64,000 nt of DNA, from positions 21,231 to 85,230 of the forward strand of contig CP022929.1 in NCBI GenBank assembly GCA_002135175.2. The letters are read 5' to 3'. Every line of letters begins with the position of its first letter. The first letter of the stretch is position 1. Position numbers and translations under genes: made by a program. Source of the stretch: Candidatus Spiroplasma holothuricola (GTDB taxonomy: Bacteria; Bacillota_I; Bacilli_A; Mycoplasmatales; MT37). Positions 14,591-63,700 of this stretch are shown here, piece after piece. The notes under the pieces are model-generated. The model was given only the letters and a program-made list of their open reading frames with translations, was not told the origin of the DNA and did not search any database.

Positions 14591-15751
14591 ATGAAATCCA
14601 ATTCATTAAACTTTAAAGAAATCTATGCAATTGCTGATTTTCAACCTCAATACGTTTCTTTGTTTATTTGTATTTATCAAGAATCTCAATTTTTTGTTAT
14701 TTTCAATGAACGATGACCTGTTAATTTCTTCAATGATTCCCAAAAAATTGTTATTAAAAAATGTAGTTTCCTTCTTCGACAACTAATCAAAAAAGCAGAA
14801 CAAGAATTGAACACCAAAATTAAGAAAGTCAGTTACAATCTTGACTCTAACAACATCAAAATTCAAAAACATTTTTACATTCATCAATTTTCAAAGACTG
14901 TTGCATTACAACAAAAAGATATGAACATGGTTTACGATGGATTTAAAACAAATTTGAGAGATGATCTTTATCAAATTTTCTTATCAAAAATAACAAATTT
15001 TCATTTGTTAGATCAAGACAAAATGACAGCATTTCCTCCTTTGGGTGAAGTGACTAAATCAATCAAATTGGAAGGGTTGCATTACAAAGTTCATCGAGAA
15101 AACATTGCATTTTATTTAAAAATTTTCGAACAAGCAAAGATTACTCCTTTTCGGCCAGTGTTGCTTCCATATGCCATATTTATTGGATTGTTCAATTCTC
15201 TCAAAGTAAAAAAATCAGCAGTTATTATATGAAATGAAAATAAATGGCAATTGTATTACTTTGTCAACAAAGTTTTTGTTAAACAATTCTTTTTTCGTAA
15301 ATCATTGTCTTATCTTATTGAGAAAATTCACAAAAAATTTCATTACAAAAAAGAAGATGTTAGAAAGTATTTATTCAATTTTTTAAGCATCAACAAAATT
15401 GAAAAAAATATATTCGAAGCTTTGGGATTACACAATAAATCTCTTCTAGATAAACATGAAGAAATTCGTGTCCTCGTAGACCAATATTTTGCCCAGGTTT
15501 TTGATGAAATGATCTTTTTAATGAAAGATAAAATGGGAGTAAATGTCAATGATGTCAGCTTCAATATTACTGGAGATGTGATGAAAATATCCAATCTTGA
15601 AGAATATTTAAAAAAAATGTATCCAAAATTAAATTTAAAAATCAATTTTCAAAATTTTGTTGGCATCAAAGATTTTCGTGATGTTTTTTTAATTGGGAAT
15701 GCTTATTATCATCATTTAGAAAATAAGCTTATTTATAATGAAAAAATTTAA
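14591..15751 (+). CDS. highly divergent FtsA-position cell-division-cluster protein
   Basis: A 386-aa code-4 ORF (fragments 14807 and 15251 lie in the frame of ATG 14591) sits between rsmH and ftsZ. The assignment rests on position only. I could not recognise canonical actin-fold phosphate motifs. Confidence 0.4.
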
Positions 15752-21475: not shown

Positions 21476-22405
21476 ATGAATAAATCAATCGACAAGAAAT
21501 CTAAAATCATTATTTCCCAAATGGTGAACAAAAGTCTTAAAAATACTCCTTTTTTTGCAGTAATTTTAACTATAATTGGTAGCTTAGCTTTTTTCTTTGT
21601 TTTAGTTGCTGCTATTGTCCCCCCTGACGAAATCAAAGCATCAAACTTCAATTACGTTTCTCTTCCTGCAGTTATTTTTGCTAATAATTCTCAAAGCGTT
21701 TTTCATGGGCAAGTTTGAAGAATTTTCACTTTTTTCTTAATTGAAAACGTTTCAGGTATTTTTGCAATAATTACATTTATTTTGTTGCTCTTGTTTGTTT
21801 TCATACCTGCAGGTTACAATCATGAATTAATCATGGGTTCTAAAAAAACAGCCTTGATTTTGATTCCTTCTGTTTTAATGATCGGTCTTCTTCAAGTTGG
21901 ATTGACAAATAATGCCGTAGTTTATTATTTTGGAATTCAAAATTTGAGTTGAATTCTTTTAGGTAGTCTGATTTTCATTTATTTATTTAAAGAAACCGAA
22001 AATAGTCAACTCAAACTAACTCTTCGGCCAATTATTTTAAAAATTTTTGTTTTCTCAATAATTTTTGAGGTATTGAGAGTGCAAGGTATTAGTGATATTC
22101 TCAATAATAAAGCAAATATAACAAACAACCCATTATTAAATTTTCAAATTTATTATTTTCTTTTTCCTTTGATGGGAATGTTTTTTGGTTTTTTGGGTTC
22201 ATTTTTCTTTGAATTAAAAAATTTAGATAATTTGTCAATATATTTTTTAATTGGAATAGCTATTATTACTTTTCTCGTTGCCATTTATTTTGTTATTTTA
22301 AATTTTATGGATCTACCTCTTTTCCCAAGCAATAGCCCCTTTTCTTTTAGGAACATTAAACGTATTTTTAATAGTTTCATTTCTTCGAGTTCGGGATCGG
22401 GATAA
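21476..22405 (+). CDS. polytopic integral membrane protein, unknown function
   Basis: A 309-aa code-4 ORF (fragments 21476 and 22073 share a frame) with at least six hydrophobic segments. Confidence 0.6.
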
Positions 22406-29688: not shown

Positions 29689-29996
29689 AAAGGAACAAAA
29701 CTAATTCAATAAGCCAGCTTTTGTTTAAGCTAATTATTTATCTATTCAATTGAAATTGAATTTTGCCTTAAATTTTTATTCTTCTCAGCAAATGCCGCTA
29801 CCTTAATTTGCGTTGCTCGCTTGTGGAAGTTTACCGCGTTTCACATTACTCGTCTCTGTGGCACTAGTCATCATTTTTCAATGTTCCCAATTTCTTGAGA
29901 CACAAACACTACTAACATTACAGTTAGTGCGAGGCCGGACTTTCCTCTAGTAACATATGGTCACCAGCAATTAGCATAAATTAGCCTTGTTCCTTT
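29689..29996 (-). ncRNA. rnpB: RNase P RNA (type B, Firmicute/Mollicute-like)
   Basis: The minus strand carries the hallmark AGAGGAAAGTCCGGCCTCGCAC. The 3' conserved segment ...AAAAGCTGGCTTAT... is also present. The terminal P1 pairing is AAAGGAACAAGG / TTTTGTTCCTTT. The ends are approximate. Confidence 0.85.
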
Positions 29997-31129: not shown

Positions 31130-31414
31130 CTATTTTACAGTTGCTGCAATATCTTCTTTTAATTTCTTGCTTGGTTTGAATTTCATAACAAACTTTGCAG
31201 GAATTGTAATTGGCTTTCCTGTCTGTAAATTAATTCCTTTTCGAGCTGCTCGATGAACAATCGAAAATGTTCCAACACCAGCCACTTTAAAAACCTTGTC
31301 AGCTTTTAAAGCCATAATCATTGAAGCAAAAATTGTGTCATAAGCACGCTCTGTGTCTTTTCGACTCATTTCTAGCTTTTTAGATAACATGTCAATAAAC
31401 TCAATTTTTTTCAT
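31130..31414 (-). CDS. hup: HU-family DNA-binding protein, copy 2
   Basis: A 94-aa protein with an HU fold pattern (...GVGTFSIVHRAARKGINLQTGKPITIPAKFVMKFKPSKKLK). It shares 86 of 94 residues with the upstream copy. Confidence 0.9.
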   Translation of the reverse strand: MKKIEFIDMLSKKLEMSRKDTERAYDTIFASMIMALKADKVFKVAGVGTFSIVHRAARKGINLQTGKPITIPAKFVMKFKPSKKLKEDIAATVK

Positions 31415-31418
31415 AGAT

Positions 31419-31703
31419 CTACTTTACAGTTGCTGCAATATCATCTTTTAATTTCTTGCTTGCTTTGAATTTCATAACAAATTTTGCAGGAATTGTAATT
31501 GGTTTTCTTGTTTGTAAATTAATTCCTTTTCGTGTTGCTCGATGAACAATCGAAAATGTTCCAACACCAGCTACTTTGAAAACCTTGTCTTCTTTTAGAG
31601 CTGTAATCAATGAAGCAAAAATTGTGTCATAAGCACGTTCTGTGTCTTTTCGACTCATTTCTAGCTTTTTAGCTAACATGTCAATAAATTCAATTTTTTT
31701 CAA
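31419..31703 (-). CDS. hup: HU-family DNA-binding protein, copy 1
   Basis: A 94-aa tandem paralog of 31130-31414, separated from it by 4 nt. Confidence 0.9.
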   Translation of the reverse strand: MKKIEFIDMLAKKLEMSRKDTERAYDTIFASLITALKEDKVFKVAGVGTFSIVHRATRKGINLQTRKPITIPAKFVMKFKASKKLKDDIAATVK

Positions 31704-37278: not shown

Positions 37279-38448
37279 ATGAAGATAATCACGGGAAAAC
37301 TTAAGAACCACACAATCAATCCCAAAAAAAATATAAATTTTTCTCCAATTTCTTCTTACCTCCGAGAGGTTATTTTTGATGTTTTTAATTCAATTTGAAG
37401 TTGGGAAAATAAGGATATTATTGACTTATTTGCTGGGACAGGAATTTTAGGATTTGAAGCTTTATCAAGAGGATGTAAATTCGTTTATTTCAATGATATT
37501 AATAAAAAAAACATTGATAATATTAATTTATTTTCAAAAGATAAATTAGAAAACAATCAATATTCAGCTGATAATTTGCCTTACAAACAATTTTTACTGA
37601 AACTAAAACAAAGCAAAATAAAAGTTGATCTTGTTTTTATTGATCCTCCTTTCAAATCTCCAGAAATGATTGAAAATGCGATGTCCTATTTAGCTAAAAA
37701 TCATATTGTTAAATACGGAGGGTTTGCAATTGTTGTTAGTAAAAATTTTGTCGAAGTTAGTGATTCTAATTGAATAGTTGTCAGAAACAAAAAATATGGT
37801 CAAAAAATTTTCACACTTTGAAAATTTAGAAAAGAAGAAAAAATAATATTGGCTCGTTCAAAATCAAAATTTCTGCTTATTTCCGGAGCAAGTGGGGTTG
37901 GGAAAAGTAAAATTATTGCTGAATTAATAGCTGATCAGAGTTTGAATTTAGCCTACTCTGTTTCTTCAACAACAAGAAAAAAGAGAGAAATTGAAATCAA
38001 TCAAAAAAATTATTTCTTTGTTTCTCTTAACGATTTTCAAAAGATTAAAAATGAAGAAGGATTCCTTGAGTATGCTAAATTTAACAATCATTTTTATGGA
38101 ACTTCTAAGGAATATGTTAACAATTTAATGGTCCAAGAAAAAAACGTCCTCCTTGAGACGGAACTTATCGGAGCCGAGATTTTAAAAAAAAAGTTAGTAC
38201 CAATTTACTGAATTTACATCTTACCTCCGAGAATTGAAAAATTAAAATTTCGTCTTGAAAAAAGAAAAACAGAAAACAAAAACGATCAAGAGCACAGAAT
38301 TAAAAAATCAATTAATGAAATCAAGTATGTTTTAGAAAATAAACCATTTGATTTTTGTATTATTAATGAAGAAATCAAAGACTCTGTCGCTCAAATCAAA
38401 ACATTTTTGTTGAAAAAATCTTTTGATTGAAAAGTTCCAAAATCTTAA
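37279..38448 (+). CDS. gmk: single 389-codon ORF fusing 16S rRNA m2G966 methyltransferase RsmD (N-terminal) to guanylate kinase (C-terminal)
   Basis: The RsmD part has DLFAGTGILGFEALSRG and the motif VFIDPPF. The Gmk part has the P-loop ISGASGVGKS, plus SSTTRKKRE and YGTSKEY. I read the junction at 37771-37851 codon by codon and found no TAA or TAG in frame. The TAA at 37844-37846 is out of frame. Confidence 0.8.
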
Positions 38449-40848: not shown

Positions 40849-43800
40849 ATGAACAAAAAAAAAATTTTTAAATTTATTACAAGCTTGGTGACTGTTGGGA
40901 CAATTTTTACGGGAACCACAGTTTTTATTTTTAGTTCACGATCCTTCTTTCTCAATCAAAATTTGTTTGATTCAATTAATTCAAATTTGATTAAACAAGA
41001 AGTCAATTTTAAATCGTTTCAAAATTTTAAAAAAATTTTTATGAAAGTTATTGAAAATTATGAAAAATTTAAAGTTGTTGATGAATTTAAATATTTAGAA
41101 CAATTTAATTTAAAAAACAAAGAAGATTTTCAAAAATTGAACAACAAAATTGACTTAATAATTAAGTATGTAAATAATAATGAAGACAAAAATAAAGATG
41201 ATCTCATTAAATTACCACAATCAGAACAAGAAGAATTGGCAAATTTTTTGAACAGTTTATTTAAAAAATCTACTGTGAATGGATCAACTTCAAACTCCCA
41301 TCCCAAAATATGAATTAATGAATTAATCAGTATTTTTTCGGAAAAAATTGATAAAGCTGAATTTGAAATAAATATTCAAAAGTTAATTACTAAGTTTGTT
41401 GCTGAAAAAATTACATCTAAAATTTCAGTTTTTATGAATTTTAGTGATTTTTTTATGAAGTTAAAAATAACAAAGTTAAATATGACACTACCCAGTAATT
41501 TCAACTATGAAAAATTTTTGAAAATTTTCAGAAAAAGTGATGACTCCATTGGAGAATTTGAATATGAAATAGACGAAATGAAACTAAATAAATTAACAAA
41601 TAAAATGATTAAAATATTTTTTTTATATGATTTTTCCGAATTTAAAAAAGTTATTTCAAAATTAAAAAACGAATGAGATCAAATATTAATTTTAAAAATA
41701 ACTTTAACTGAAAATGATTTGAGTGAAGCTTTCAAATATATTGAAGAAATAGAAGATGAAGAAAACAAAAGTGGCAAAATCACAGAATTAAATACAATTT
41801 TAGACCCAATTACTTATAGTCAATTAATGTCATGATACAAAAAAAATAATGCTCTTTCAACGGATTACATAATCGATACAGATGTAATTGAAAGATTAGA
41901 TAATGTTAGTCTTAATGCCGTAAATAAATTAAATTTGACTACTTTTCTCAATAAAATTAAAGAATTTAAAAAAATCGATAAACAAAAAATTTTGATAAAA
42001 ACAATCACCGATGCTGTCATTGGTGATCTCATCAGTTACGTCGAAACACTAAATCCAACATCCAAACAAAAATTAATTACGAATCTAAATACAAATTTAT
42101 CAAATGATCTAACATATGCATCATTAATTCGGCTTTTAGATACACAAAATAACTATGCAACAAATAATGAAGTTATTAAAAATTTGACCGACATTGAATT
42201 AATTAAATGAGACAATCTCAATCTAACTGATTTTAAAGCCCAAATTCAAAGTTGAAAAGATGAAGAAGAAAAACGCACAACTTTAAAAGAAACACTTAAT
42301 GATGCAAATTTAGCTGAATTATTGCAATATGTCGAATCATTAGATGAATCAATAAAAACAACATTAATCAATGATCTTGATTTAAAACTAGGTGACAGTC
42401 GAACATATGCTAAATTAATCCAACTTTTTGGCGAAGATAATAATTATCAAATAAATAATGATGCGATTGATGTATTAACAGGCAATGATTTGGATATTTG
42501 AGACACGTTCGACTTAACAAACTTTAAGATAAAAATTGATGAACACAAAAATCAAAAAACACTTACAATTGAGCTGGAAAAAGATGGAATAATTGAATTA
42601 ATAAAATTTTTTGAAAAATGAGAAGACAAAAGTGCCAAAGAGAATGAATTGGATGTAATCCTTGGAAATAATGTTAGTTATTTGAATCTAAAAGGTCTTT
42701 TTGACTCAACGGATTGAACTGTTGATGAAAATGTGATAAATGCACTTTCTGGTGATAGTTTAGATAAATGAGATGGACTTGATTTAACCAATTTCAAAGC
42801 AAAAATTCAAGAATGAAAAGATGAATATGAAAAACAGACAATCTTAAAAGAAACAATCAATGAAGCTGGATTGTCGACATTGTTGGCATATGTTGAATCA
42901 TTAAGTGACACTGCAAAAGCAACATTAATTAACACTTTAAATTTAACACTTGGAGATGAACAAACATATGCAAAATTAATTCAACTTTTAAATGTGGACA
43001 TCAATTATCAAGCAAATGAAGTCATTATTAAAGCTTTGACAGGAGATGAACTAACAAAATGAGATAACTTAGATCTAACTGAATTCAAAGCCAAAATTGA
43101 AACACATAAAAAACAAACAGCACTGAAAAAGAAATTAAAGGACGATGGAGAAATTGCTGGATTAATTAAAAATTTTCAAGAGTTTTTCAATGATAATCAA
43201 GAAAAAATCGATGAATTAAATGGTACTTTGAACAATGGTTTAACTTACAATGATTTATTGAACTTATTTACCAAAAATTCTGATGACACGTACTCATTGA
43301 ATGAACTAGCAATCTTTTCTTTAGAGGGAGAAGAATTGACCAAATGAAACGATTTGGATTTAATCAATTTCAAAGCAAAAATTAATGAACAGAAAAAACA
43401 ACAAACACTCAAAGAGAAGCTAGAAAATGCAGACTTAAAGGAATTATTGAAGTTTTTCGAAATTTGAGACGAAAAGGTAACCAAAAAAAGTGAGTTGGAT
43501 ACAGCTCTTGGAGAGAGTATTAGTTATTCAGATATGATAGGTCTTTTTGATTCAGTAGATTGAACTGTTGATGAAAATGTGATAAATGCACTTTCTGGTG
43601 AAAGTTTAACTAAATGAGATGGACTTGATTTAACCAATTTCAAAGCAAAAATTCAAGAATGAAAAGATGAAGAAGAAAAACGCACAACTTTAAAAGAAAC
43701 ACTTAATGATGCAAATTTAGCTGAATTATTGATTTCATTTGAAAGTTGAAATATCAACGATAAAAGCGAAAAAATAACAATGTTAGATAACTTGCTTGGT

Positions 43801-44718
43801 GACGACATCACTTATATAAATCTGAAAAGTTTTTTAAATGCAGAAAATTGAACTGTTAATGAAAACGTGATAAATGAGCTTTCTGGTGATAGTTTAGATA
43901 AATGAGATGGACTTGATTTGACTAATTTTAAAACGAAACTTACGGAATATGCAGTATCAAAAAAAAGAATACTATTAATCATAGAGACGAAGAAATTGAA
44001 AGATAAAATTGAACTCTTTCAAAGATTATTGATTCAAAAAAAAGATGGATATGAAGCTGCACAAACACAAATCAATAATGCATTACCAGAAGGTTTGACC
44101 TTTGAAGATTTGAAAAGTCTGTTTGCAATTGATGGAGATTCTGGCTTTTCAATATTAAAAGAAAATGAAATTAATCAATTGATGGGGAACGATTTGGACA
44201 AGTGAACTGGTCTAAATGGACAAGCAATCATTGATATCATAAATACCTATGATCAGGGAGTGGATAAAGTTGCTCCAGCTTATTATGATCAGATTGATAA
44301 TTTAATTGATTTTGAAGAATTAAAAACAACGTTAAAACAAAATAAAAATACCGAACAAATTGCCAAAATTGATTCCATGAAAATAATCAAAACAGTGATT
44401 GGCATCGACCATCTCTATGAAAAAGTAGTGTGAACATACTTGTTAGATGGGAAAATTTTTAAATTCTGGGTGACTATCGTTGTAGGAAATTTTAAAACGT
44501 TCAATGTCAATAAAAATTACACAGAACTTTGATTCCAACAGGGTGAACTGGATGATCTGGAAAACATTGACACAATTTTGGAAACAAGTGTGATAGATAT
44601 CAACAGACCAAGACCAGAAGCAAACAAAATGAAAAATTGACCTGATGTGAAAAAATACATTGACATAAATTTAAAAAACAAAATGAATCGTTATTTTTTT
44701 GACACATCTCCTGCATAA
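40849..44718 (+). CDS. 1289-aa membrane-anchored/secreted tandem-repeat protein (candidate surface protein)
   Basis: Five track fragments (40849, 41434, 41935, 42871, 43918) all share one frame and are joined by TGA codons. The stop is TAA 44716-44718. The N-terminal hydrophobic anchor reads FKFITSLVTVGTIFTGTTVFIF. About 8 units of ~95 aa each end in ...L(S/T)G(D/E)xLxKW(D/N)xLDLTxFKAKI. Confidence 0.85.
41930..44205 (+). repeat. in-frame tandem repeat array with a period of about 270-290 nt and about 8 units of two alternating subtypes
   Basis: The LDLTxFK motif recurs near 41935, 42215, 42505, 42785, 43070, 43355, 43625 and 43915. An exact 72-nt repeat occurs at 42253-42324 and 43660-43731. 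A ~114-nt near-identical repeat occurs at 42713-42826 and 43558-43671, with a third diverged copy at 43849-43930. Confidence 0.9.
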
Positions 44719-49087: not shown

Positions 49088-51259
49088 CTAAATTTCTAGT
49101 TTATTAATTGATAATTTATTTTCATTTCTGTCAATTTTCATCACCTTTCCATCTTTGAATCGAATCACGGTGTCGGCAATTTGAGAAAATTTTTCATTGT
49201 GAGTAATGAGAATAATTGTCGTTTTGTAACGTCGTTGAATCATTAATAAAGTTTTTAATACTTTTCGTGACATCTTCTGATCAAGTGCTCCAGTAGGTTC
49301 GTCACAGAAAAGAAGATCGGGGTTTTTGGCAATAGCTCGAGCAATTGAAAAACGTTGTTGTTGTCCTCCTGATAGTTGGTAAGAATAAGAATCTGCCAAA
49401 TCACTAATTTCTAAAATATCCATTAATTCATCAATAGGAATAGTTTTTTTGTCAGTTGAAGCAAGATAAGCTCCAATCTCAATATTTTCCCGAGCAGTTA
49501 AGTTTTGGAGAAGATTATAACTTTGGAAAATAATTCCCACATAATGACGGCGGAAATTTGTTAATGCAGAATTATCCATCATTGTTAAGTTTTGACCAGA
49601 AACAAGAACATCACCTGTATCTGCTAAATCAATCCCCGACATCACATTTAATAAAGTTGTTTTACCTGAACCTGAAGGACCAAGAATAACCACAAATTCA
49701 CCCTTCTTAATTTTCAAATTAACATTGTGAAAAACTTTTGTGACGACTCGTTCCACAAGATAATATTTGGAAATGTTTTCTAATTCAATAATGTATTTTT
49801 CTGGAGAAGGATCAAGAGAAGTAACCAATAATTGTTCATTAATTTTATTAGATTTTTTCTTTTGACGATAACGGAGAGTTTTATATTGTCTTAAATTTCA
49901 ATTGTATTCATTGTTGTTTTTGATCAGAGAATCATAAAGTTCAGGATTATCGTAGTTGTGGTAATTAAATCTTTTGATTTTGTCTTTTTGATATCATCAA
50001 AAAAATAATTTGGAATTAATAAATTTTTTCAATGATGTTCACACATTCAAAAAAACAGAAGGTGTTTCGGGAATTGCATCTTGAAATTTAATCAAATTAA
50101 AGAATGATTTTTGAATCACAAATTTAGGAACACCCTTCAAAGAACTAGCCAAAGGCAAAGTACTAAAATCAAGCTTTTTAATCTTAATTTGATAAAGTTT
50201 GAGCTTTGCAATTTTGACAAAGTGTTTAACAAAATATTTGTATAAAAAATCATAGTCATTGAAATAATTTAAATTCAAAAATATAACTCGATTTTTTTCA
50301 GTGCTCCCGGTTGGATATTTGGTGAGTGAAGAATTAACTGGCAGAAAATAAAAATCAAAATTCAAATTAAATCACAAAGAAATATTAAGAGATTTTTTTG
50401 ATTTCAATTCTGGTAAAAACGATTGATTTAAAATGAACTGAATCGGAATTGACTTAGTTGGATAGATTTCAGATATTGAATTTATTTTTTGAACAACAAT
50501 TTCGGGAGAAAGCTTCACTGAAACAAAGGGTTGAGGAAAAAGTGTTGAGAATTCAATCAAACGACGTGAAGCAGTTAAAAATTGTAATTTGTCATTTACA
50601 ACTTTGATAATCATGGCAAAATGGGCTAAAACTTTGTTGGCAAATGAAGTTGATCATAACAAGTAAGAAAAACTTCAAACTTGAACAAATGAATCACGAT
50701 TCATTGAAATTGGTTTAGTAGTTAACAAAGAAGTAACGGGAATAAAAAAGAAATCTTGTTGGGGAATAACAAAAAAAGCAATAGAAAGATCTCTTTGGGA
50801 ATCTTTTTTAAAAATAAGTAGGACTTCTTTGGGTTTGACATCTTGACGAGTTGATTTATGAACTTTCAAAATTCGTTGGGGATTTTTTTGCGGAAACAAA
50901 ATTTTTGTTTGCGAAATGTTTCGAAAAATTAATTGATGATCTTTAATGCTTTGACCAAAGGAAAGTGGATAAAAAAATAACAAAGTTTTACCCGGTTTAA
51001 AAAATTTTGAAAACTTTTTCAAGTAATAAGCAAAAGAATCATAAAAAGTGGATTGCGTTACTGCAGTCGGCAGGAAAAAAAATTGAATTTGATTATCAAA
51101 TGTTCCAGCCAAAGGCTGAGATTTTAAAACAGAAGTGACAGGTAAAAAGACAAAAATTTTATTGGCAGGGTGAAAAAAAGCAATATTTAACGGAAAGACC
51201 GAATTTTTGAACAGAATTAAGTTCAGAACTTTTTTTGATGGAGATTTAGAAGCAACCAT
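49088..51259 (-). CDS. ABC transporter ATP-binding protein (MacB/LolD-like ATPase) with a ~480-aa N-terminal extension
   Basis: Four track fragments (tops 51259, 50614, 50365, 49828) are in one frame. I read all the junctions and found only TGA codons. The C-terminal ATPase has [17 protein letters not shown] and LLFCDEPT. The N-terminal region has an internal repeat: [36 protein letters not shown] versus [37 protein letters not shown]. Confidence 0.85.
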
Positions 51260-51279
51260 AAAATTAATAAAAAAACAAT

Positions 51280-51543
51280 TTAATGAGAATTATTACTGTT
51301 TGATTTAAGTGCTGGAGTTGATTTGGTTGGATTCGTAGTTGGAGATGATTTCACTTCTAATGAACGAATTTTTAAAGTAGTCATGATTCGGGCAATTTGT
51401 TTACGGATTTTACCAACATCAGCATAATTAGTTTTTTGACCGGAATGAATCTGAAAACGAACAACAAACAATTGACCACGAAGATCAGTTAACTGTTGTT
51501 TTAGTTCAGTGATTGTGAATTTAGATAAATCTTTATTTTTCAA
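51280..51543 (-). CDS. rpmC: 50S ribosomal protein L29, with an S/T/N/P-rich C-terminal tail
   Basis: The sequence contains ...ELKQQLTDLRGQLFVVRFQIHSGQ...KIRKQIARIMT. The probable TTG start at 51543 overlaps the rplP end; the track start at 51570 is likely too long. Confidence 0.85.
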   Translation of the reverse strand: MKNKDLSKFTITELKQQLTDLRGQLFVVRFQIHSGQKTNYADVGKIRKQIARIMTTLKIRSLEVKSSPTTNPTKSTPALKSNSNNSH

Positions 51544-51961
51544 GGGCAGGGAAATCAGCACGAGAGACAAAGCGTCATTTTAAAGGAAGTTTGTTACCAG
51601 CAGCACGAATTGCTTCTTGTGCTTTTTCTTTGCTAATGCCACTAATTTCATAAATAATTGTCCCCGTTTTAGCCACGGCTACTCACTTATCAACACTTCC
51701 TTTTCCAGAACCCATTCGTACTTGTGTGGGTTTAGCTGTCTTAGCAAAATGAGGAAAAATACGAATTCACATTTTTCCAGTTTTTTTTATATATTTCATT
51801 AAAGCAATTCGACCAGCTTCAATTTGATTGCTCGTGATTCAATTTCCTTCTTTTGCTTGCAAACCATACTCACCAAAATCAAGTCGTTTACAACCTTTAG
51901 CTTTGCCAGTGTATTTAACACGATGCGGTTTTTTTCAAATGGTTTTTCGAGGTATTAACAT
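51533..51961 (-). CDS. rplP: 50S ribosomal protein L16
   Basis: A code-4 ORF absent from the track. It begins MLIPRKTIWKKPHRVKYTGKAKG and contains ...RMGSGKGSVDKWVAV.... Confidence 0.92.
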
Positions 51962-56211: not shown

Positions 56212-56517
56212 TTAGACTGTCTTCACTGATAAATTGACACTCGATGCTAGTTGCATATGTTGTAATTGATCAATTGTTTTTAAATTAGGATGCAAAACAA
56301 TTAGTCGTTTGTGTGTTTTTTGTTCGAAATGTTCTTGTGAATCTTTGTGCCGAAAAACACCTCGAAGAACTGTATAAAGTCTTCGCCGAGTTGGTAAGGG
56401 GATTGGTCCCCGAAACGTTGAACCAGATGCACGGGCAATTTCAATAATTTTTCGTGCTGATTCATCAACGATTTTATGCTCATAACCTCAAATTAAAATT
56501 TCCATTTTAGCAATCAT
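56212..56517 (-). CDS. rpsJ: 30S ribosomal protein S10
   Basis: A code-4 ORF; the 60-aa ORF the track lists at 56301-56483 is out of frame relative to it. The sequence is MIAKMEILIWGYEHKIVDESARKIIEIARASGSTFRGPIPLPTRRRLYTVLRGVFRHKDSQEHFEQKTHKRLI.... Confidence 0.93.
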
Positions 56518-56551
56518 AATAATAAAAAAACAAATTATTAAACTTCATTAA

Positions 56552-56560
56552 ATTTTATCA
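56552..56560 (-). promoter_or_regulatory. candidate extended -10 element (TGATAAAAT) for the S10 operon
   Basis: Read on the minus strand about 35 nt upstream of the rpsJ ATG and just downstream of the terminator at 56611-56643. Confidence 0.3.
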
Positions 56561-56610
56561 TGTAAAAAACAAGAATTTAAGTGAGAGTAATAGTAAAAAT
56601 GAACCTTTTA

Positions 56611-56643
56611 ACAAAAAAAAGCCCCCGAAAAAAATTCAGGGGC
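56611..56643 (-). terminator. rho-independent terminator (GC stem GCCCC...GGGGC followed by T8 on the minus strand)
   Basis: The minus strand reads GCCCCTGAATTTTTTTCGGGGGC followed by TTTTTTTT. It is the only GC-rich hairpin in this intergenic region and lies about 65 nt after the small-ORF stop. Confidence 0.8.
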
Positions 56644-56706
56644 AGTTATAAGGAAAAGTTAACACTGTTCAATAAAAACAATGATTGGACTAATCCAGTC
56701 TAATAA

Positions 56707-56817
56707 CTAACAACAGCTGCTTGTCTTATGACAATTACATTTTTGAGAACAAGTCTCAGAACTGCATGTAAGAACGCAAGTTCTACATTGGCAACTACAA
56801 TTTTTTGTTTGTGACAT
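56707..56817 (-). CDS. 36-aa cysteine-rich small protein (10 Cys; metallothionein-like pattern)
   Basis: The minus-strand ORF is ATG TCA CAA ... TGT TGT TAG = MSQTKNCSCQCRTCVLTCSSETCSQKCNCHKTSSCC. An AGAAAGG Shine-Dalgarno sequence lies 6 nt upstream; an alternative ATG sits 2 codons upstream at 56823. A TATAAT box lies at 56856-56861, and the terminator follows at 56611-56643. It is below the track size cut-off. Confidence 0.55.
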   Translation of the reverse strand: MSQTKNCSCQCRTCVLTCSSETCSQKCNCHKTSSCC

Positions 56818-56855
56818 GGACATCCTTTCTGCTAGGAATTAACCTAACATAAAAA

Positions 56856-56861
56856 ATTATA
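56856..56861 (-). promoter_or_regulatory. consensus -10 box (TATAAT) upstream of the Cys-rich small ORF
   Basis: The minus strand reads ...TTTTTATATATAATTTTTTATG.... The box lies 45-50 nt downstream of the rpoC stop and about 38 nt upstream of the ATG. I found no convincing -35 element. Confidence 0.4.
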
Positions 56862-56905
56862 TATAAAAATTATTCTTTTCTATAAAAGATCAAAAAAAAC
56901 GTAAA

Positions 56906-59900
56906 TTACGTGCTTAAATGCTTTTTTCAGGGACTTTTTTCGTGGGGATTGATCTTTTCACCCTGCTCATTGGTGATTCAATTTTCTGGAAAAATACTGC
57001 CCGTTCCAACTGGAATCATGTTTCCAACAATAACATTTTCTTTCAAACCATAAAGCTCATCGGTTCGATTTTCAAGAACCGCCCGAATTAAAACTTGAGT
57101 TGTTCCTTGGAAACTGGCAGCCGAAAGGAAAGAAAAGGTTTTTGATGCCCGGGCTTTTGTTCCTTTGATTAATGATCGATGTTTGATTGGTTTTTGTTTG
57201 TTGGCGATTAATTTAGCATTAATTTGATCGATTCGATATTTTGTTTCTTCTTCGCCAATTGTGTAGTTTGAATCACCAGGATCAATAATGAAATTGATTG
57301 AAAGAATTTTTCGGACAATAATTTCAATGTATTTGTCAGCTAGTTCAATTCCTTGTAAATAATAAACTTTTTGGACTTCTTCGATGATGTAATCAGCAAC
57401 AATATTTTGATCTCTGGTAATATCCAATAATTCCTTTAAGTTGGCAACTCCTTCGGTCAAAAATGTTCCAAAAACAACTTGATCACCAACGGCAACGTTC
57501 ATCACTGATTTAGCTGGTGTGGGGATAATTTTTTCACCATTTTCCGTTTCGACATGAATATTAAATTTCTGATTATCAACTTCAATCACCTTAGTCACCT
57601 CGCCTTTCACTTGAGAAAGTAAAGCAATGTTTTTTTTCGGACTAATTACATCAAATAATTGAATTACTCGGGGCAATCCTTGAGTAATGTCACTGGCATC
57701 GGAAACACCACCAGTGTGAAATGTTCTCATTGTTAATTGTGTTGCTGGTTCACCAATTGATTGAGCAGCTAATATTCCAATTGCTTGGCCACGATTAATT
57801 AGTTTGTTTTTGGCCAAGTCCAAACCAAAACATTTTTGGCAAGAACCTCGTGGTTCAGCACACGTCAAAATTGAACGAATTTTTACTTCTGGAACTCGAG
57901 CCAGATCAATGGCTGCTGCTTCTTTTTTGCCGATAATTTTTCCTTTGGCAAGAATTTCTTGGCCATTGGCATCAACAATCGCGGCCGCTGTTATTCGACT
58001 GTAAACTCGTGTTCCCAAACTAATCATTTCACTATTCAATTTTTTGTAAACAATCGCCCGAATAATAAATCCTTTTTTGGTCCGACAGTCATCACTGGTG
58101 ATGTAAAAATCATGGGCAACATCAATTAATCTTCGCGTAAGATAACCAGAGTCTGCTGTTTTTAATGCTGTGTCAACCATTCCTTTTCGAGCTCCATACG
58201 TTGAAATGAAGAATTCCAAATAATCCAAACCATCAGTTAATGATGATTTAATTGGTGTTTCAATAATGTGTCCCCGGGTATTCACCATCAATCCCCGCAT
58301 CCCAACTAATTGAGTAAGATTCGAAAGACTTCCCCGGGCTCCGGAATCAACCATTGAATAAATTGAATGATGTAAATCACCTTGAATGAATTGTTTTTCC
58401 AGTTCTTTTTCCACTTTTTCTTTAACAGAAGTTCATTCTTGAATTCGTTGAATTCGGGCTTCAGTTTTGGTAATTCCACCCAAATTATAAATTTCTTTTA
58501 ATTTCAACAAACGGATCTCGGTTTCAGCAAATAAACTTTCTTTTTTCGTTTTATAAGAATTCAAATCAAAGAAAGAAATTGATGTTCCTGAGCGAGTTGA
58601 ATATTTAAATCCAAGATCTTTCAGTTTGTCGAGTACTTCCACGGTTGCCGATTCACCTTTTTCTTCAAATAATTTATGAACGATGTCGGAAAGAACACTT
58701 TTTGAAATTGCGGGAGCAACCTTGATTTCCTTGATTACTGAATTCAAATTACTATCTAGTGGATAAAACTTTATTGGTTCTTTTCAGTTGGCATTGGCAA
58801 TATAAGGGAAATCATTACCAAAAATTTTATTAAAAATTACTTTACCGACTGTTGTTTGAAAAAATCCTGATTGTTTAATTAAGTTTGGTTTATTCAATGA
58901 GGAAGCCAATAAAAAGATTGGTGTGTGCAGATCAATTTTTCCACTATGATAAGTCATTTCCGCAAATTCTGGGGTCACGTAATAAGAACCAGCCAAAGGC
59001 TTATCAAATTCTTCCGACGTCAAATAATAAATTCCCAAAATCATGTCTTGTGATGGAATGACGATCAATTGTCCGTTTCGTGGATTCAAAAGATTGTGAT
59101 TACTCATAATAATTTCTTTAACTTCTTGTTTTGCAACTTCGGTGAGTGGTAGATAAACTGACATTCGATCACCATCAAAGTCAGCATTAAAAGCCGTCGT
59201 TACCAATGGATGCAATTGAATCGCTTTTCCTCGAGTTAAACGAGGAAAGAAACCTTGAATTCCGAGTCGATGTAAAGTTGGTGCTCGATTCAAGAGCAAA
59301 GGATAACCTTTCACTAATTCTTCGAGAATGTCTCAAATAATTGGTTCTTGTTCGTCAACAATTTTTTCAGCAGCTTTTTTATTGACAGCTAATTCTCTTT
59401 TTAGTAACTTTCCAATAATCATTGCTCGAAAAAGAACAACGGCAATATCACGAGGTAATCCACATTCATTTAATTTTAATTGAGGACCACCAACAATGAC
59501 TGAACCAGCAGAATAATCGATTCTTTTACCAAGAAGATTTGATCGAAATCTTCCAGTTTTTCCTTTGAGATTTTCGGCAATTGAACGGGTGTTTCCATCA
59601 TTAGGATCAATCATTCGTTTTCCGCGGTTGGCTAAATCTTTATCAAAAAGAACATCGGCCGCTTCTTGAACTAAGGCTCGTAATTGATTGACCATGAATA
59701 ACGGTGAGAATTTTTCTTGATGTTTTTGCAAACGATTTTTTCGAATAATCAATTCATTGTACAATTTATTGATCCCAGAAGTGGCAAATCGCCCCCCTTC
59801 TAGATGAACAATTGGTCGTAATTCTGGGGGAAGAACGGGGATGGTTCGAGTTGTCATTCATTCTAATTTTTGTCCTGTTCGATAAAAGTTGTTCAGTAAT

Positions 59901-60709
59901 TTCAAGCGTCTTTGATCAGAATTGCTTTGTTCGTGTTGAATCTTAGTTTTTGATAATCGTTTTTTCAAACGCTCAATTTCTCCAGTTAGATCAATTGATT
60001 TTAGTAATTGCTCAATGGCTGAGCCTCCTGTTTCTAATTTAAAAAAGCTTGATTCATTAATGAAGTGAATGAATTCTTCAAGAAAAAAAGTAGCATTTTC
60101 TCCTGATTCTAGTTCAAAAAGAAAAGTATCGGCCTCCATTCGCTCAGGAGTACCGGAAGCAAATCGATCACGAGTTTTGACGATTAATTTTCGCAACAAT
60201 TCTTTTGTTCGAATCATTTGTTTTGTTTCTTGAGTGGCAACACTGTATTGAAAGTCAATGATTTCTCCAATTTTGATGTCTGGATCTTGATCATTTTCAA
60301 CGACAGCATAAGCTTTGTATTGAATCAATTGTTCTAAATTTGATTGATCAATCGCCAACACAATTGAGACGGGAGAAGGAATTGTTCGGTAAAACCAAAC
60401 GTGAACAATCGGATCATGCAATTCAATGTGTCCTAATCGGCGTCGACGAACAATGCTTTCAGTAACAAGAACACCACAAGAATTACAAACTTTTCCTTTA
60501 TATTTAATTCGCCGATATTTTCCACAAGCACATTCGTTATCTTTAACTGGACCAAAAATTTTTTCACAGAAAAGTCCAGAAGGAACTGGCTTTTCACTTT
60601 TGTAATTAATCGTTTCGGCTTTCGTTACTTCACCAAACGATCATGAGCGAATGGTTGTGTCATTAGCAAGACCGATTCGAAGAGAAAATTGATTAAATGG
60701 TTTTTTCAT
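56906..60709 (-). CDS. rpoC: DNA-directed RNA polymerase beta' subunit
   Basis: A 1267-aa code-4 ORF. All six track fragments share a frame. It starts at ATG 60709 ([23 protein letters not shown]...). It contains the zinc-binding CACGKY...CNSCGV and the catalytic NADFDGD. It extends 24 codons past the track end to TAA 56906-56908. Confidence 0.97.
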
Positions 60710-60711
60710 GT

Positions 60712-63700
60712 TTAGCGAGGCGAACGTGCTGTTGAATATTGTGACGTTTGTTTTTCTTCTTCTTCAGATGGAGTCTTTGGTTCGTTTTCAATGATTTCCA
60801 AATTCAAACAAAGAGAACGCATTTCTGACATTAAGACATTGAATGATTCAGGAAAGTAATTGTAATCAATTATTCGTGGTTTATCATTAATCAACATTTG
60901 ATAAATGGCATTACGACCTTTGATGTCATCCGACTTGATTGTTAATAATTCTCGCAAATTGTAAGCTGCTCCATAAGATTCCAGCGCTCAAACTTCCATT
61001 TCTCCAAAACGTTGCCCACCATTTTTGGCTTTTCCTTTGAGGGGTTGTTGTGTGACAAGTGTATAAGGACCAATTTCTCGAGAATGAATTTTGCTTTCCA
61101 CCATGTGTGATAATTTCATGTAATAAATTAAGCCAATTGCAATTGGTTGGTCAAATTTTTCACCAGTTTCACCATCATAAAGAATTTCTTTTCCGGTCGG
61201 AGAATGACCAGCTTTTTTCATAATTTCTTGTAATTGTTCGGAATTGGGCCCAATAAAGACAGGACAAGCAATTTTTATTCCTAATTTTTTGGCAGCATAA
61301 CCAAAATGCATTTCCAACAATTGACCAACATTCATTCGTGAAGGAACACCAAGTGGATTAATCATAATATCAAGTGAACGCCCATCTTTCATATAAGGCA
61401 TACTGTTTCGAGGAAGAATTCGTGAAACAACTCCTTTGTTTCCATGACGAGAAGCTAATTTGTCTCCTTCTTTGATTGGAATTTTTTTGGCAATAAAAAT
61501 TTTAATCACTTCAATCACTTCGGAAGAAAGAGTCTCTTTCAGATCTTTTTCCCGATAATGCTTAATGTCTTGAACAATTCCATGCATTCCTGTTGGAACA
61601 ACTAAGGAATTATTTTCTGCCGGTTGTTCTCGACCTTTAAATAATTGATTCAAAAGAATATCTTCTGGTGTTCGTTGACCTTTGTCTTTTGGTGTCACTT
61701 TTCCAACAAGAATATCTCCAGGTCCAACTTCTGAACCTAATAAAACGATTCCTTTTGAATCAAGTAAGCGCCGGGCTTTTTCACTGGCATTAACCACTTC
61801 AGACGTAAATTCTTCATCTCCTAATTTAGTTCTCATTCGCCGAATTTCGTATTCTTCGACATGAAGAGAAGTGAAAACATCATCAACCACCAATCGATCA
61901 CTAATGATTAAGGCATCTTCGTAATTAAATCCTTTTCATGTGGTAAATCCTACCAAAAGATCTTGACCAAGAGCCAATTCTCCTTTTTCAATTGAAGAAC
62001 CATCAGCAAGAATATCATTAGTCTTTACTTGGTCGCCTTTTTCAACAAACACTCGATGAAAGAGGGCCGTTCGTTGATTTGAGGGCAAGAAATTCGATGT
62101 ATTATAGTTTTTTAAGCTCCCTTCTTTTGTTTTTAAAGTGATGTGATCACTATCAGCATAAACAATTTCTCCATCATATTCGGAAACAATTGAAAAGCCA
62201 GAATCACGAGCAATTTGTTTTTCGACACCAGTACCAACGATTGGGGAATGGGGATCAATTAAGGGGACGGCTTGTTTTTGCATATTTGCTCCCATCAATG
62301 CTCGATTGGCATCATTATTTTCCAAAAAAGGAATAGCTGCTGCTGAAACAGAAAACATTTGCGATGGTGAATATGTTAAGTATTCAACATCATTGGCATC
62401 AACTTCAATTAGTTGATCCCGGAAATAAACAGTGATTTTTTTAGAAGTAAATGATCCATCAGAATTAATACGAGTTGTTGGGGGGGCAATCACAACACTC
62501 ATTTCTTCCAAAGTTGAAAGATATTGGACTTCTCCAATGACTTTGCCATTAATCACTTTTCAATATGGTGTTTCAATAAATTTTCACTTATTGATCGAAG
62601 CAAAGTAAGAAAGATTAGAAATCAATCCAATGTTAGGACCTTCTGGTGTTTCGATTGGACAAATTTTTCCTAGGTAAGAGTAATGAACGTCACGAACATT
62701 AGTTGAAGCATTTGCTCTTTTTAAACCACCTTCACCAAGAACTGTGATTCGACGTTTGTTCGATAATTCAGTTAAAGGGTTTGTTTGATCAAAAAATTGA
62801 GAAAGAGGAGAAACATTAAAAAAATCACGAATATTATTAGCTAATGGTCCGAAATTGATTAAAGAAACAATCCGGTGATTGTATTTTGATGAAAGCATAT
62901 CATTAATTTTTCGATTAGTTTCATCAATGATTTTTTTCAAACCGATTCGAAATTGATCTTCCATCAATTCTTCAATCAAATGAATGTTTCGGTTGCCAAG
63001 ACTATCAATATCATCGACTTTTCCAATATCATAACTCAAGTTTAAAACATGAGAGATGATTCCCATCATGTCAGGAACAGTAAGTGTTTCGTCTTGACAT
63101 TTAGGATCCACTCCAAAAACCTTGACAACTTTTGTCCGTGTCTTGTTATCAGCAAAAACTTTAACCATTTGCAATCGATCAGTTCCTGAAATAAGTGTTC
63201 GATCATAAGCCAGAGTAACAAGACAATTATCATTTTTTAAAAATTGATCAAGTTTTCTGATTTGTTTTTTACCAATTCAAGTTCCTTTTGAAAAAACAAT
63301 CTTTTTTGTTTTGTGATCAATTAAATCTTCGGCCAAAATTCGTTCATAAAGTAAATTACCAAGAAAAAGTTTTTGATTAACCTTGTAACGGCCAACATCT
63401 GAAAGAAAAAACTTTTGACGACTGAAAAAAGAATCAATGAGGATTTGATATTTTGATTCAACGGAAATGTTGATGTTTTCAAATAATTTGGCATAGATTG
63501 TTTTGATTGCATCATCTTTTTTGGGCTGATAGTTGATACTTGCATATGAATTAACAATTTCGTCAGCTTCATTGAAAAAATCTCGTGCATATTCTTCACT
63601 AAAACCGAAAAGAGTGAAAATATTGCTAACTAAAATATTGTGAGTTTTTGATTTGTCAATCAAAATTTCAAATGTTGGAATAAATTCATAAACTTGTCCA

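Follow-up and report, generated by a model that had tools for sequence, protein, structure and literature searches.

The 64,000-nucleotide stretch of DNA analysed here (referred to as the window; 64 kb, overall GC content 29.4%) carries on its minus strand, in this order, rpoB and rpoC, a spacer of 388 nt, and then rpsJ, rplC, rplD and the genes that follow them. The subject of this report is a small open reading frame (sORF) of 36 codons in that spacer, read on the same strand, whose product contains 10 Cys in 36 residues (28%), arranged as CxCxCxxC, CxC and a C-terminal CC. A preliminary interpretation of the window, made from the letters alone (the sequence-only reading), had placed a -10 box, a ribosome-binding site (RBS), this Cys-rich ORF and a terminator between rpoC and rpsJ, and all four are found there on the minus strand, at the coordinates collected in Table 1. 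A second in-frame ATG at 56823, two codons upstream of the first, would extend the peptide to 38 residues by the addition of 'MS'. The GC content of the ORF is 35.1%, with 35.6% in rpsJ and 35.8% in rpoC, against 20-22% in the flanking spacer; the claim that the ORF is less AT-rich than its flanks thus holds.

At its 3' end the gene is closed by an intrinsic terminator with a GC-rich stem of 9 bp, including six G-C pairs, and a loop of 5 nt. Its predicted stability of -15.6 kcal/mol compares with -8.6 kcal/mol for the runner-up among all combinations of hairpin and T-run on both strands of the 64 kb, so that it is indeed the strongest terminator of the window, as had been proposed. At the 5' end, the TATAAT box was missed by a consensus promoter scan because of its poor -35 hexamer, none being recognisable. 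Further upstream, an AT-rich palindrome overlaps the stop codon of rpoC and is followed by eight T residues; with fewer than three G-C pairs, it was passed over by the terminator scan. It may weakly terminate rpoBC, in which case the small gene would stand as a unit of its own. Downstream, rpsJ is separated from the terminator by a stretch with an extended -10-like box, which suggests that the S10 operon has a promoter of its own and receives no read-through from the small gene.

The Shine-Dalgarno (SD) sequence of the sORF has no parallel in the window, where SD-like motifs precede none of the 52 long ORFs and none of the nine named genes (0/52 and 0/9). Essentially the same is seen in the five related lineages described below, in which 0/7, 0/7, 0/7, 3/12 and 0/6 of the other genes carry an SD; genes of this clade, ribosomal-protein genes included, are thus almost always without one. 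With the sORF it is otherwise: five of the six lineages have a canonical SD in front of it (AAAGGA, AAGGAG, GGGAGGT and, twice, AGGAGGT). With a canonical SD and the strongest terminator of the window, the small gene is a sharply delimited and probably strongly translated unit. From its place between two highly expressed operons the sequence-only reading had suggested strong expression, with which these two signals would agree. A genome devoid of SD sequences in which one gene is led by an SD amounts to a natural experiment on translation initiation.

Table 1. Features of the window locus, rpoC-rpsJ intervals in related lineages, and sORF peptides (aa, amino acids; UTR, untranslated region; rpoC and rpsJ with TGA read as Trp).
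Feature	Locus	Coordinates	Strand	Details	Basis
rpoC	window	56906-60811	-		
AT-rich palindrome	window	56892-56911	-	ACGTA-ATT-TACGT over rpoC stop codon, then T8	by eye
-10 box	window	56856-56861	-	TATAAT	direct reading of sequence
RBS	window	56830-56824	-	AGAAAGG	direct reading
SD core	window	56823-56828	-	AAAGGA, 5 nt 5' of ATG 56817	direct reading
sORF	window	56707-56817	-	36 codons + TAG; peptide MSQTKNCSCQCRTCVLTCSSETCSQKCNCHKTSSCC	start ATG 56817, stop TAG 56709-56707
3'UTR	window	56644-56706	-	two small hairpins, predicted pairing with SD/start region	folding prediction
Intrinsic terminator	window	56613-56643	-	GCCCCTGAA-loop-TTCGGGGGC + T8; hairpin 56643-56621, T8 56620-56613	terminator scan
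Extended -10-like box	window	56552-56560	-	TGATAAAAT, between terminator and rpsJ	by eye
rpsJ	window	56212-56517	-		
rpoC-rpsJ interval	window	56518-56905			
rpoC-rpsJ interval	L028	2190-3001			
rpoC-rpsJ interval	L029	1233-3001			
rpoC-rpsJ interval	L032	598-3001			
rpoC-rpsJ interval	L034	3517-6001			
Peptide MSQTKNCSCQCRTCVLTCSSETCSQKCNCHKTSSCC	window			36 aa, 10 Cys	
Peptide MAILFNNKCSNDTNNSCCNNCKNNNCCSCNCCNCCC	L028			36 aa, 12 Cys	
Peptide MKNKTSCSCNKCSCSSCCCTATGKCQCTNC	L029-31			30 aa, 10 Cys	
Peptide MSCSSKCNCCGCSSKKDCKCSSDCKDCNCKK	L032-33			31 aa, 10 Cys	
Peptide MKTYGKCSCCSSCEKSCTCCSSCKGCTCK	L034			29 aa, 10 Cys	
Peptide MSSYNKCNCCSCSKVNCSCPTDCTKCDCKH	L037			30 aa, 9 Cys	

Recurrence of the small ORF in related lineages

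The window organism is not a classical mycoplasma, but appears to belong to a clade from marine invertebrates around Oceanoplasma and 'Ca. Spiroplasma holothuricola'; in 'Ca. Oceanoplasma callogorgiae', the genome has 446,099 bp and 31% GC, and 'Ca. Spiroplasma holothuricola' (29.5% GC) is given as its close relative (PMC11535214). A protein search with the S10 protein of the window yielded 12 proteins of 42-69% identity, and contigs were examined for six. Five lineages could be scored beside the window (L028, L029-31, L032-33, L034 and L037; S10 identity 56-69%), bringing the sample to six lineages, with none closer to the window organism among them; L038/39, from a 63%-GC organism outside the clade, was left out. 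A scan of genome contigs with the window S10 returned distant phyla only, and in a protein search with the C-terminus of RpoC the best matches had 44-50% identity; in the two contigs nearest by RpoC, rpoC is followed by rpsL or by unrelated genes, which is uninformative on the spacer.

In all five relatives, rpoC and rpsJ lie on the same strand with variable genes between them: a gene of the HTH_3 family in L028, a gene for a 365-aa protein without Pfam match in L029-31, and rpiB together with a convergent uvrC in L032-33, L034 and L037. The interval spans 0.4-2.5 kb without rpsL-rpsG-fusA-tuf, and has the look of a spot for variable cargo. In each scorable relative, the frame densest in Cys within the whole locus is located on the rpoC strand, next after rpoC or rpoC-rpiB, where no gene has been called. 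It is followed in all five by a terminator, located 56-92 nt past the stop codon of the sORF, with runs of T5 to T8 and -12.5 to -19 kcal/mol, and by eye L028, L032, L034 and L037 show a -10 box 5' of the sORF, in several cases of the extended TGn type.

Taken by itself, the Cys density of the window ORF is only moderately convincing evidence against chance, even though it is the highest among the 1530 stop-to-stop frames of the window. The frame antisense to rpsJ (56216-56377, plus strand), which is clearly non-coding and served as a negative control, holds 8-9 Cys per 30-36 residues and thus demonstrates that Cys-rich frames arise by chance in DNA rich in TGT and ACA; moreover, where only TAA and TAG act as stops, an open frame of 43 codons in a spacer of 300 nt is not rare. 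The comparison between lineages is of a different weight. Among 58 unrelated loci outside the clade, 243 kb in all, not one frame attains eight Cys per 30 residues, and in every scorable clade locus the most Cys-dense frame, with 10-12 Cys, sits at the syntenic position (the L037 peptide proper has 9). This comparison places the window ORF far beyond chance.

These observations lead us to propose a family, the 'rpoC-downstream Cys-rich sORF' of marine reduced-genome mollicutes, defined by a length of 29-36 codons, a Cys content of at least 28%, a position immediately past rpoC or rpoC-rpiB on their strand, and a terminator of its own; judged by sequence and gene order, the window and the five relatives all belong to it, with 29-36 codons and 28-34% Cys (30-34% in the five relatives). 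Two points count against the family as drawn. The contigs of L035/36 end 340-417 nt past uvrC and are not scorable, and the window peptide aligns with none of the other members beyond what composition alone provides (z < 1), so that its membership rests on synteny, architecture, length and composition. That the window sORF arose separately at this position can be imagined but would be unparsimonious.

Reading frame against RNA structure

Cysteine codons are locked in phase throughout the family: in the six lineages, TGY triplets number 9-12 in frame and 0-1 in each other phase (10 against 1 and 0 in the window ORF). Three of the peptides, those of L032, L034 and L037, align better than their composition explains (z = 3.9-6.2 relative to shuffles of unchanged composition), and their genes differ mainly at synonymous sites; the proportion of synonymous differences (pS) is 0.63 to >1, that is, saturated, the proportion of non-synonymous differences (pN) is 0.25-0.35, and the ratio of the two rates (dN/dS) is about 0.25. 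Each pair within this trio keeps 8-9 conserved Cys columns, at 2-3 of which the codon switches between TGT and TGC. This pattern points to purifying selection on the alignable trio. Among the strains L029, L030 and L031 there are only three differences, all outside the ORF and too few for a selection test. The comparison of frames and Cys columns in relatives for which the sequence-only reading had called has thus turned out in favor of a gene: frames are intact in five lineages, the cysteines are locked in phase, and the trio evolves as a coding sequence under constraint would.

The same reading had entertained a structured small RNA in which the ORF would be incidental. The window transcript does fold better than 200 of 200 shuffles (z = -4.9 with the terminator and -3.1 without it), and among the relatives, whose whole-transcript values range from -0.9 to -4.0, some reach -2.9 and -4.0. 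However, the segments comprising 5'UTR and ORF are unremarkable (z = -1.6 to +1.1), and the architectures of the predicted folds differ between lineages; no Rfam model matches at the gathering threshold or at E ≤ 10, sub-threshold hits being driven by the terminator only. Nor is the nucleotide sequence kept: blastn of the window spacer against the relatives yields short matches only, none of them at the syntenic spacer, and the lineages share no meaningful similarity at the nucleotide level. Cys codons locked in phase, intact frames, an SD and a dN/dS of about 0.25 would all be unexpected in a non-coding RNA. Since frame, Cys phase, SD and terminator recur without conservation of nucleotides or structure, a gene is favored over a small RNA, which has become very improbable; the sORF is, with high probability, a real, conserved and unannotated protein-coding gene.

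An RNA of dual function, which codes for the peptide and has a role of its own besides, may nevertheless be considered. In the predicted folds of the window (56644-56850, minus strand) and of L029 (1276-1427), the SD/start region pairs with the 3'UTR, an arrangement that is not consistent among the relatives; modelled in this way, the pairing may serve translational control or stabilisation of the mRNA. The 3'UTR of L037 (L037:4017-4197) carries the anti-SD-like sequence ACCUCCU, and the stop codon often lies inside a hairpin.

What the peptide may do

The peptides have a highly biased composition. Pooled over the six lineages, they consist of C (32%), S (17%), K (13%), N (11.5%) and T (8%), which together make up 81% of all residues, while aromatic residues account for about 1.5%. 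Each peptide contains 3-4 CxC, 1-5 CC and 1-3 CxxC motifs, CxC being the commonest overall, with 0-1 aromatic residue, 0-1 His and no signal peptide. [quoted passage not shown] With 29-36 residues and about 3-4 kDa, the sORF peptides lie below the MT ceiling of about 10 kDa and have the length of a single MT domain; their sequences display the features by which MTs are described, namely low mass, high Cys content, CxC, CC and CxxC motifs, and few aromatics.

The closest likeness is to fungal copper MTs. Yeast Cup1 (PDB 1aqs/1aqr) and the Neurospora crassa MT (PDB 1t2y), whose reference sequences were checked against PDB 1aqs and 1t2y, are single-domain proteins of 25-53 residues with 23-28% Cys, against 28-34% here; like the sORF peptides, they are dominated by CxC, have few or no aromatics, and contain much Ser, Asn and Lys. 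The motif counts of the L032 peptide are identical to those of Cup1 (four CxC, one CC, one CxxC and two CxxxC). In terms of sequence, this likeness is at the level of class and does not extend to homology; the fungal proteins moreover act in fungal hosts, whereas the sORF peptides come from a bacterial host, with no metal-inducible promoter or regulator identified. Two bacterial MTs also invite comparison. SmtA has about 55 residues, with His ligands and aromatic residues; MymT has about 53, with a lower Cys fraction than the sORF peptides, and is copper-inducible. The latter is a cytoplasmic, copper-binding MT of 4.9 kDa from M. tuberculosis, which came to light as a small ORF without annotation and is restricted to its lineage, and SmtA/BmtA (Pfam Metallothio_Pro, PDB 1jjd) are likewise bacterial Cys-rich metal buffers with a thiolate cluster, which SmtA holds in a zinc-finger-like fold (PMC7558416). 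Compared by description and not by sequence, MymT and the sORF peptides are alike in being bacterial, Cys-rich, small and initially unannotated.

By analogy with these systems, we assign a probability of roughly 0.55 to the reading that the peptide is an MT-like, metal- or redox-buffering peptide, and the odds that its mechanism is MT-like are even or marginally better. It would then act in the cytoplasm as a single-domain MT, whose 9-12 thiolates, presented in CxC, CC and CxxC motifs, would wrap around several metal ions, the chain folding only upon binding. Known MTs would lead one to expect a load of some 6-8 Cu(I) or 3-4 Zn(II)/Cd(II). Such a peptide would buffer or detoxify metal and, as a second role, take up oxidants in a cell with about 360-400 genes and few other defences. 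A more ambitious version, which must be regarded as tentative and rather doubtful, would see in it a highly expressed, near-essential product that serves as the main Cu/Zn or thiol-redox buffer in marine invertebrate tissue, represents the first MT-like family in Mollicutes and is among the smallest in bacteria, and possibly feeds the Zn sites of the RNA polymerase (RNAP) and ribosomal proteins encoded next to it.

Several results speak against the MT reading. None of the six peptides matches a Pfam or NCBIfam model at E ≤ 10, and a profile of the family matches no PDB chain at E ≤ 10, and thus no solved MT; by sequence, the peptides stand outside every defined MT family, Metallothio_Pro/SmtA included. 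Against the fungal MTs, the best scores of the sORF peptides in 12 tests are z = 2.9 and 2.6 and are essentially compositional; those of the window peptide are 1.4 and -0.5 for the two proteins. An AlphaFold2 model of the single window peptide without metals has a mean confidence (pLDDT) of 63 and no confident fold, which is uninformative. Finally, no metalloregulator or metal transporter was noted beside the gene, and its promoter looks constitutive. What had been claimed from the letters of the window, a stand-alone unit for an MT-like peptide, therefore divides in two: the coding unit stands, being conserved in five further lineages, and its product fits the description of MTs, while a role in metal binding would follow by analogy.

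Of the competing functions, the one nearest to the MT reading would have the peptide serve as thiol redox buffer, as sacrificial antioxidant or as reserve of cysteine or sulfur, without a specific metal-cluster function and in place of low-molecular-weight thiols. It draws on the same evidence from composition, on the near-complete lack of amino-acid and cofactor synthesis in genomes of the clade (PMC11535214), and on the oxidant scavenging known from MTs; the conserved Cys spacing in the trio and the dominance of CxC and CC, however, suggest cluster geometry over mere thiol count, and as a separate explanation it seems unlikely. The two readings are mutually compatible.

The constant position of the gene could be taken to indicate a small Zn-dependent partner of RNAP or the ribosome, or a Zn chaperone or reservoir for their Zn sites: the sORF always comes right after rpoBC(-rpiB) and near the S10 operon, even though its downstream neighbour changes, and its signals for translation and termination are very strong. 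Yet gene order in reduced genomes is often just ancestral; a Cys content of at least 30% is far above that of any Zn-ribbon; no similarity to known families of RNAP or ribosomal proteins exists; and the order of residues is poorly kept between lineages, which would be unusual for a fixed docking surface. We consider such a partner quite unlikely.

Cys, Ser and Thr together form 61% of the window peptide, as in the cores of ribosomally synthesised and post-translationally modified peptides (RiPPs), and a RiPP precursor (ranthipeptide/SCIFF, thiazole/oxazole or thiopeptide-like) or a secreted disulfide-rich toxin could be envisaged. This is improbable because the first Cys occurs at residue 3-9 of 29-36, such that neither a leader nor a signal peptide can fit. 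NCBIfam and Pfam give no match to a precursor model, and no radical-SAM, YcaO or lanthipeptide-synthetase domain is found among the called neighbours, one of which, the 365-aa protein of L029-31, lacks any Pfam match; in the roughly 64 kb visible of the window organism, seven of nine larger unidentified proteins proved to be housekeeping proteins and two had no family match. The published account of these genomes of about 360-400 genes likewise lists no such enzymes (PMC11535214). The sequence-only reading had offered a RiPP or toxin with the reservation that no maturase lies nearby; the reservation holds for the sequence examined, and the RiPP reading itself is now disfavored by the missing room for a leader.

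Lastly, the sORF could be regulatory, with ribosomes stalling on its Cys codons under shortage of Cys-tRNA and thereby controlling the downstream gene. There is precedent in the polycysteine sORFs of mycobacteria, which are unannotated, very short and leaderless, have consecutive Cys codons, precede operons of cysteine metabolism, and act by ribosome stalling that unmasks the RBS of the next gene (bioRxiv 10.1101/834739). The window sORF resembles them in being unannotated, very short, Cys-rich and upstream of an operon, as it is co-directional with the S10 operon and separated from it by a terminator; it differs from them in having a 5'UTR, a strong SD, a terminator of its own, and cysteines that are interspersed instead of consecutive. 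A leader peptide is distinctly improbable because the gene downstream varies (rpsJ, the HTH_3 gene, the 365-aa protein) and, in three lineages, is the convergent uvrC. In addition, the window spacer lacks a G-run complementary to the GCCCC arm of the terminator, from which an antiterminator could form, and the extended -10-like box noted by eye lies 3' of the terminator.

Three further candidates were rejected. Ribosomal protein L36 or another Zn-ribbon ribosomal protein was ruled out by eye, and family scans were also without match; the peptide is not hydrophobic, as a type I toxin would be, and it lacks the signal peptide of a secreted defensin-like peptide.

Novelty, wider meaning and other features

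No trace of the family was found in the protein collections searched. Exact look-ups of the window peptide and of two window proteins retrieved no record; an exhaustive HMMER search of 1.84 billion representative proteins with the window peptide gave zero matches, as did a word-index search of 5.8 billion protein clusters with the alignment of all six members. In metagenomes of the JGI, a scan with the trio alignment produced 176 pattern matches, none of which was confirmed, and a scan with the window S10 produced only relatives of at most 53% identity, outside the clade. The family has never been produced by any gene caller. Cysteine and metallothionein both go unmentioned in the clade paper (PMC11535214), and a full-text literature search combining metallothionein with mollicutes returned only papers that, by title or abstract, concern host genes or unrelated matters. 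The sORF peptides thus form a sequence family that is new, lacks homology to known MT families and answers to the description of MTs, the first such in Mollicutes.

Symbiont genomes of about 0.4-0.6 Mb are among the smallest of cellular organisms, and each gene kept in them is informative on what a minimal cell requires in an animal host; a conserved mini-gene that is not called implies that the published gene inventories of these symbionts are incomplete. If the peptide is an MT, bacterial MTs would gain a new sequence family, and stress by metals or oxidants would be indicated as a force of selection in symbioses of the deep sea and of corals; if it is in fact a main Cu/Zn or redox buffer, gene counts for minimal genomes would systematically overlook mini-genes of this kind. 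The peptide is short enough for synthesis, and public metatranscriptomes exist for one host.

Some further features of the window and the clade may be recorded here. The S10 operon ends after rpmC (L29) both in the window and in the relatives, without rpsQ-rplN and the genes that usually continue it, a rearrangement common to the clade; the gene after rpmC encodes a protein of 723 aa in the window (49088-51570, minus strand) and an ABC-transporter ATPase in L034:10788-12303 and L035:6920-8417. Two tandem paralogues of 94 aa (MKKIEFIDMLSKKLEMSRKDTERAYDTIF...), of the HU/IHF type of DNA-binding proteins by eye, are encoded at 31130-31414 and 31419-31703 (minus strand), a duplication that is unusual for so small a genome. 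At 29705-29982 (minus strand), a match to class B RNase P RNA covers model positions 1-365 in 278 nt, so that the ribozyme appears markedly shortened. On the plus strand, 37279-38448 encodes a 389-aa fusion protein in which guanylate kinase is joined to an RsmD-like methyltransferase domain (Cons_hypoth95), and 40849-44718 a protein of 1289 aa with a hydrophobic segment at its N-terminus and, internally, several long repeats (...WDGLDLTNFKAKIQEWKDE...), which may be a surface protein. Two more plus-strand products, of 386 aa (14591-15751) and 309 aa (21476-22405), have no Pfam match at E ≤ 0.001; the latter is, by eye, clearly a multi-pass membrane protein.

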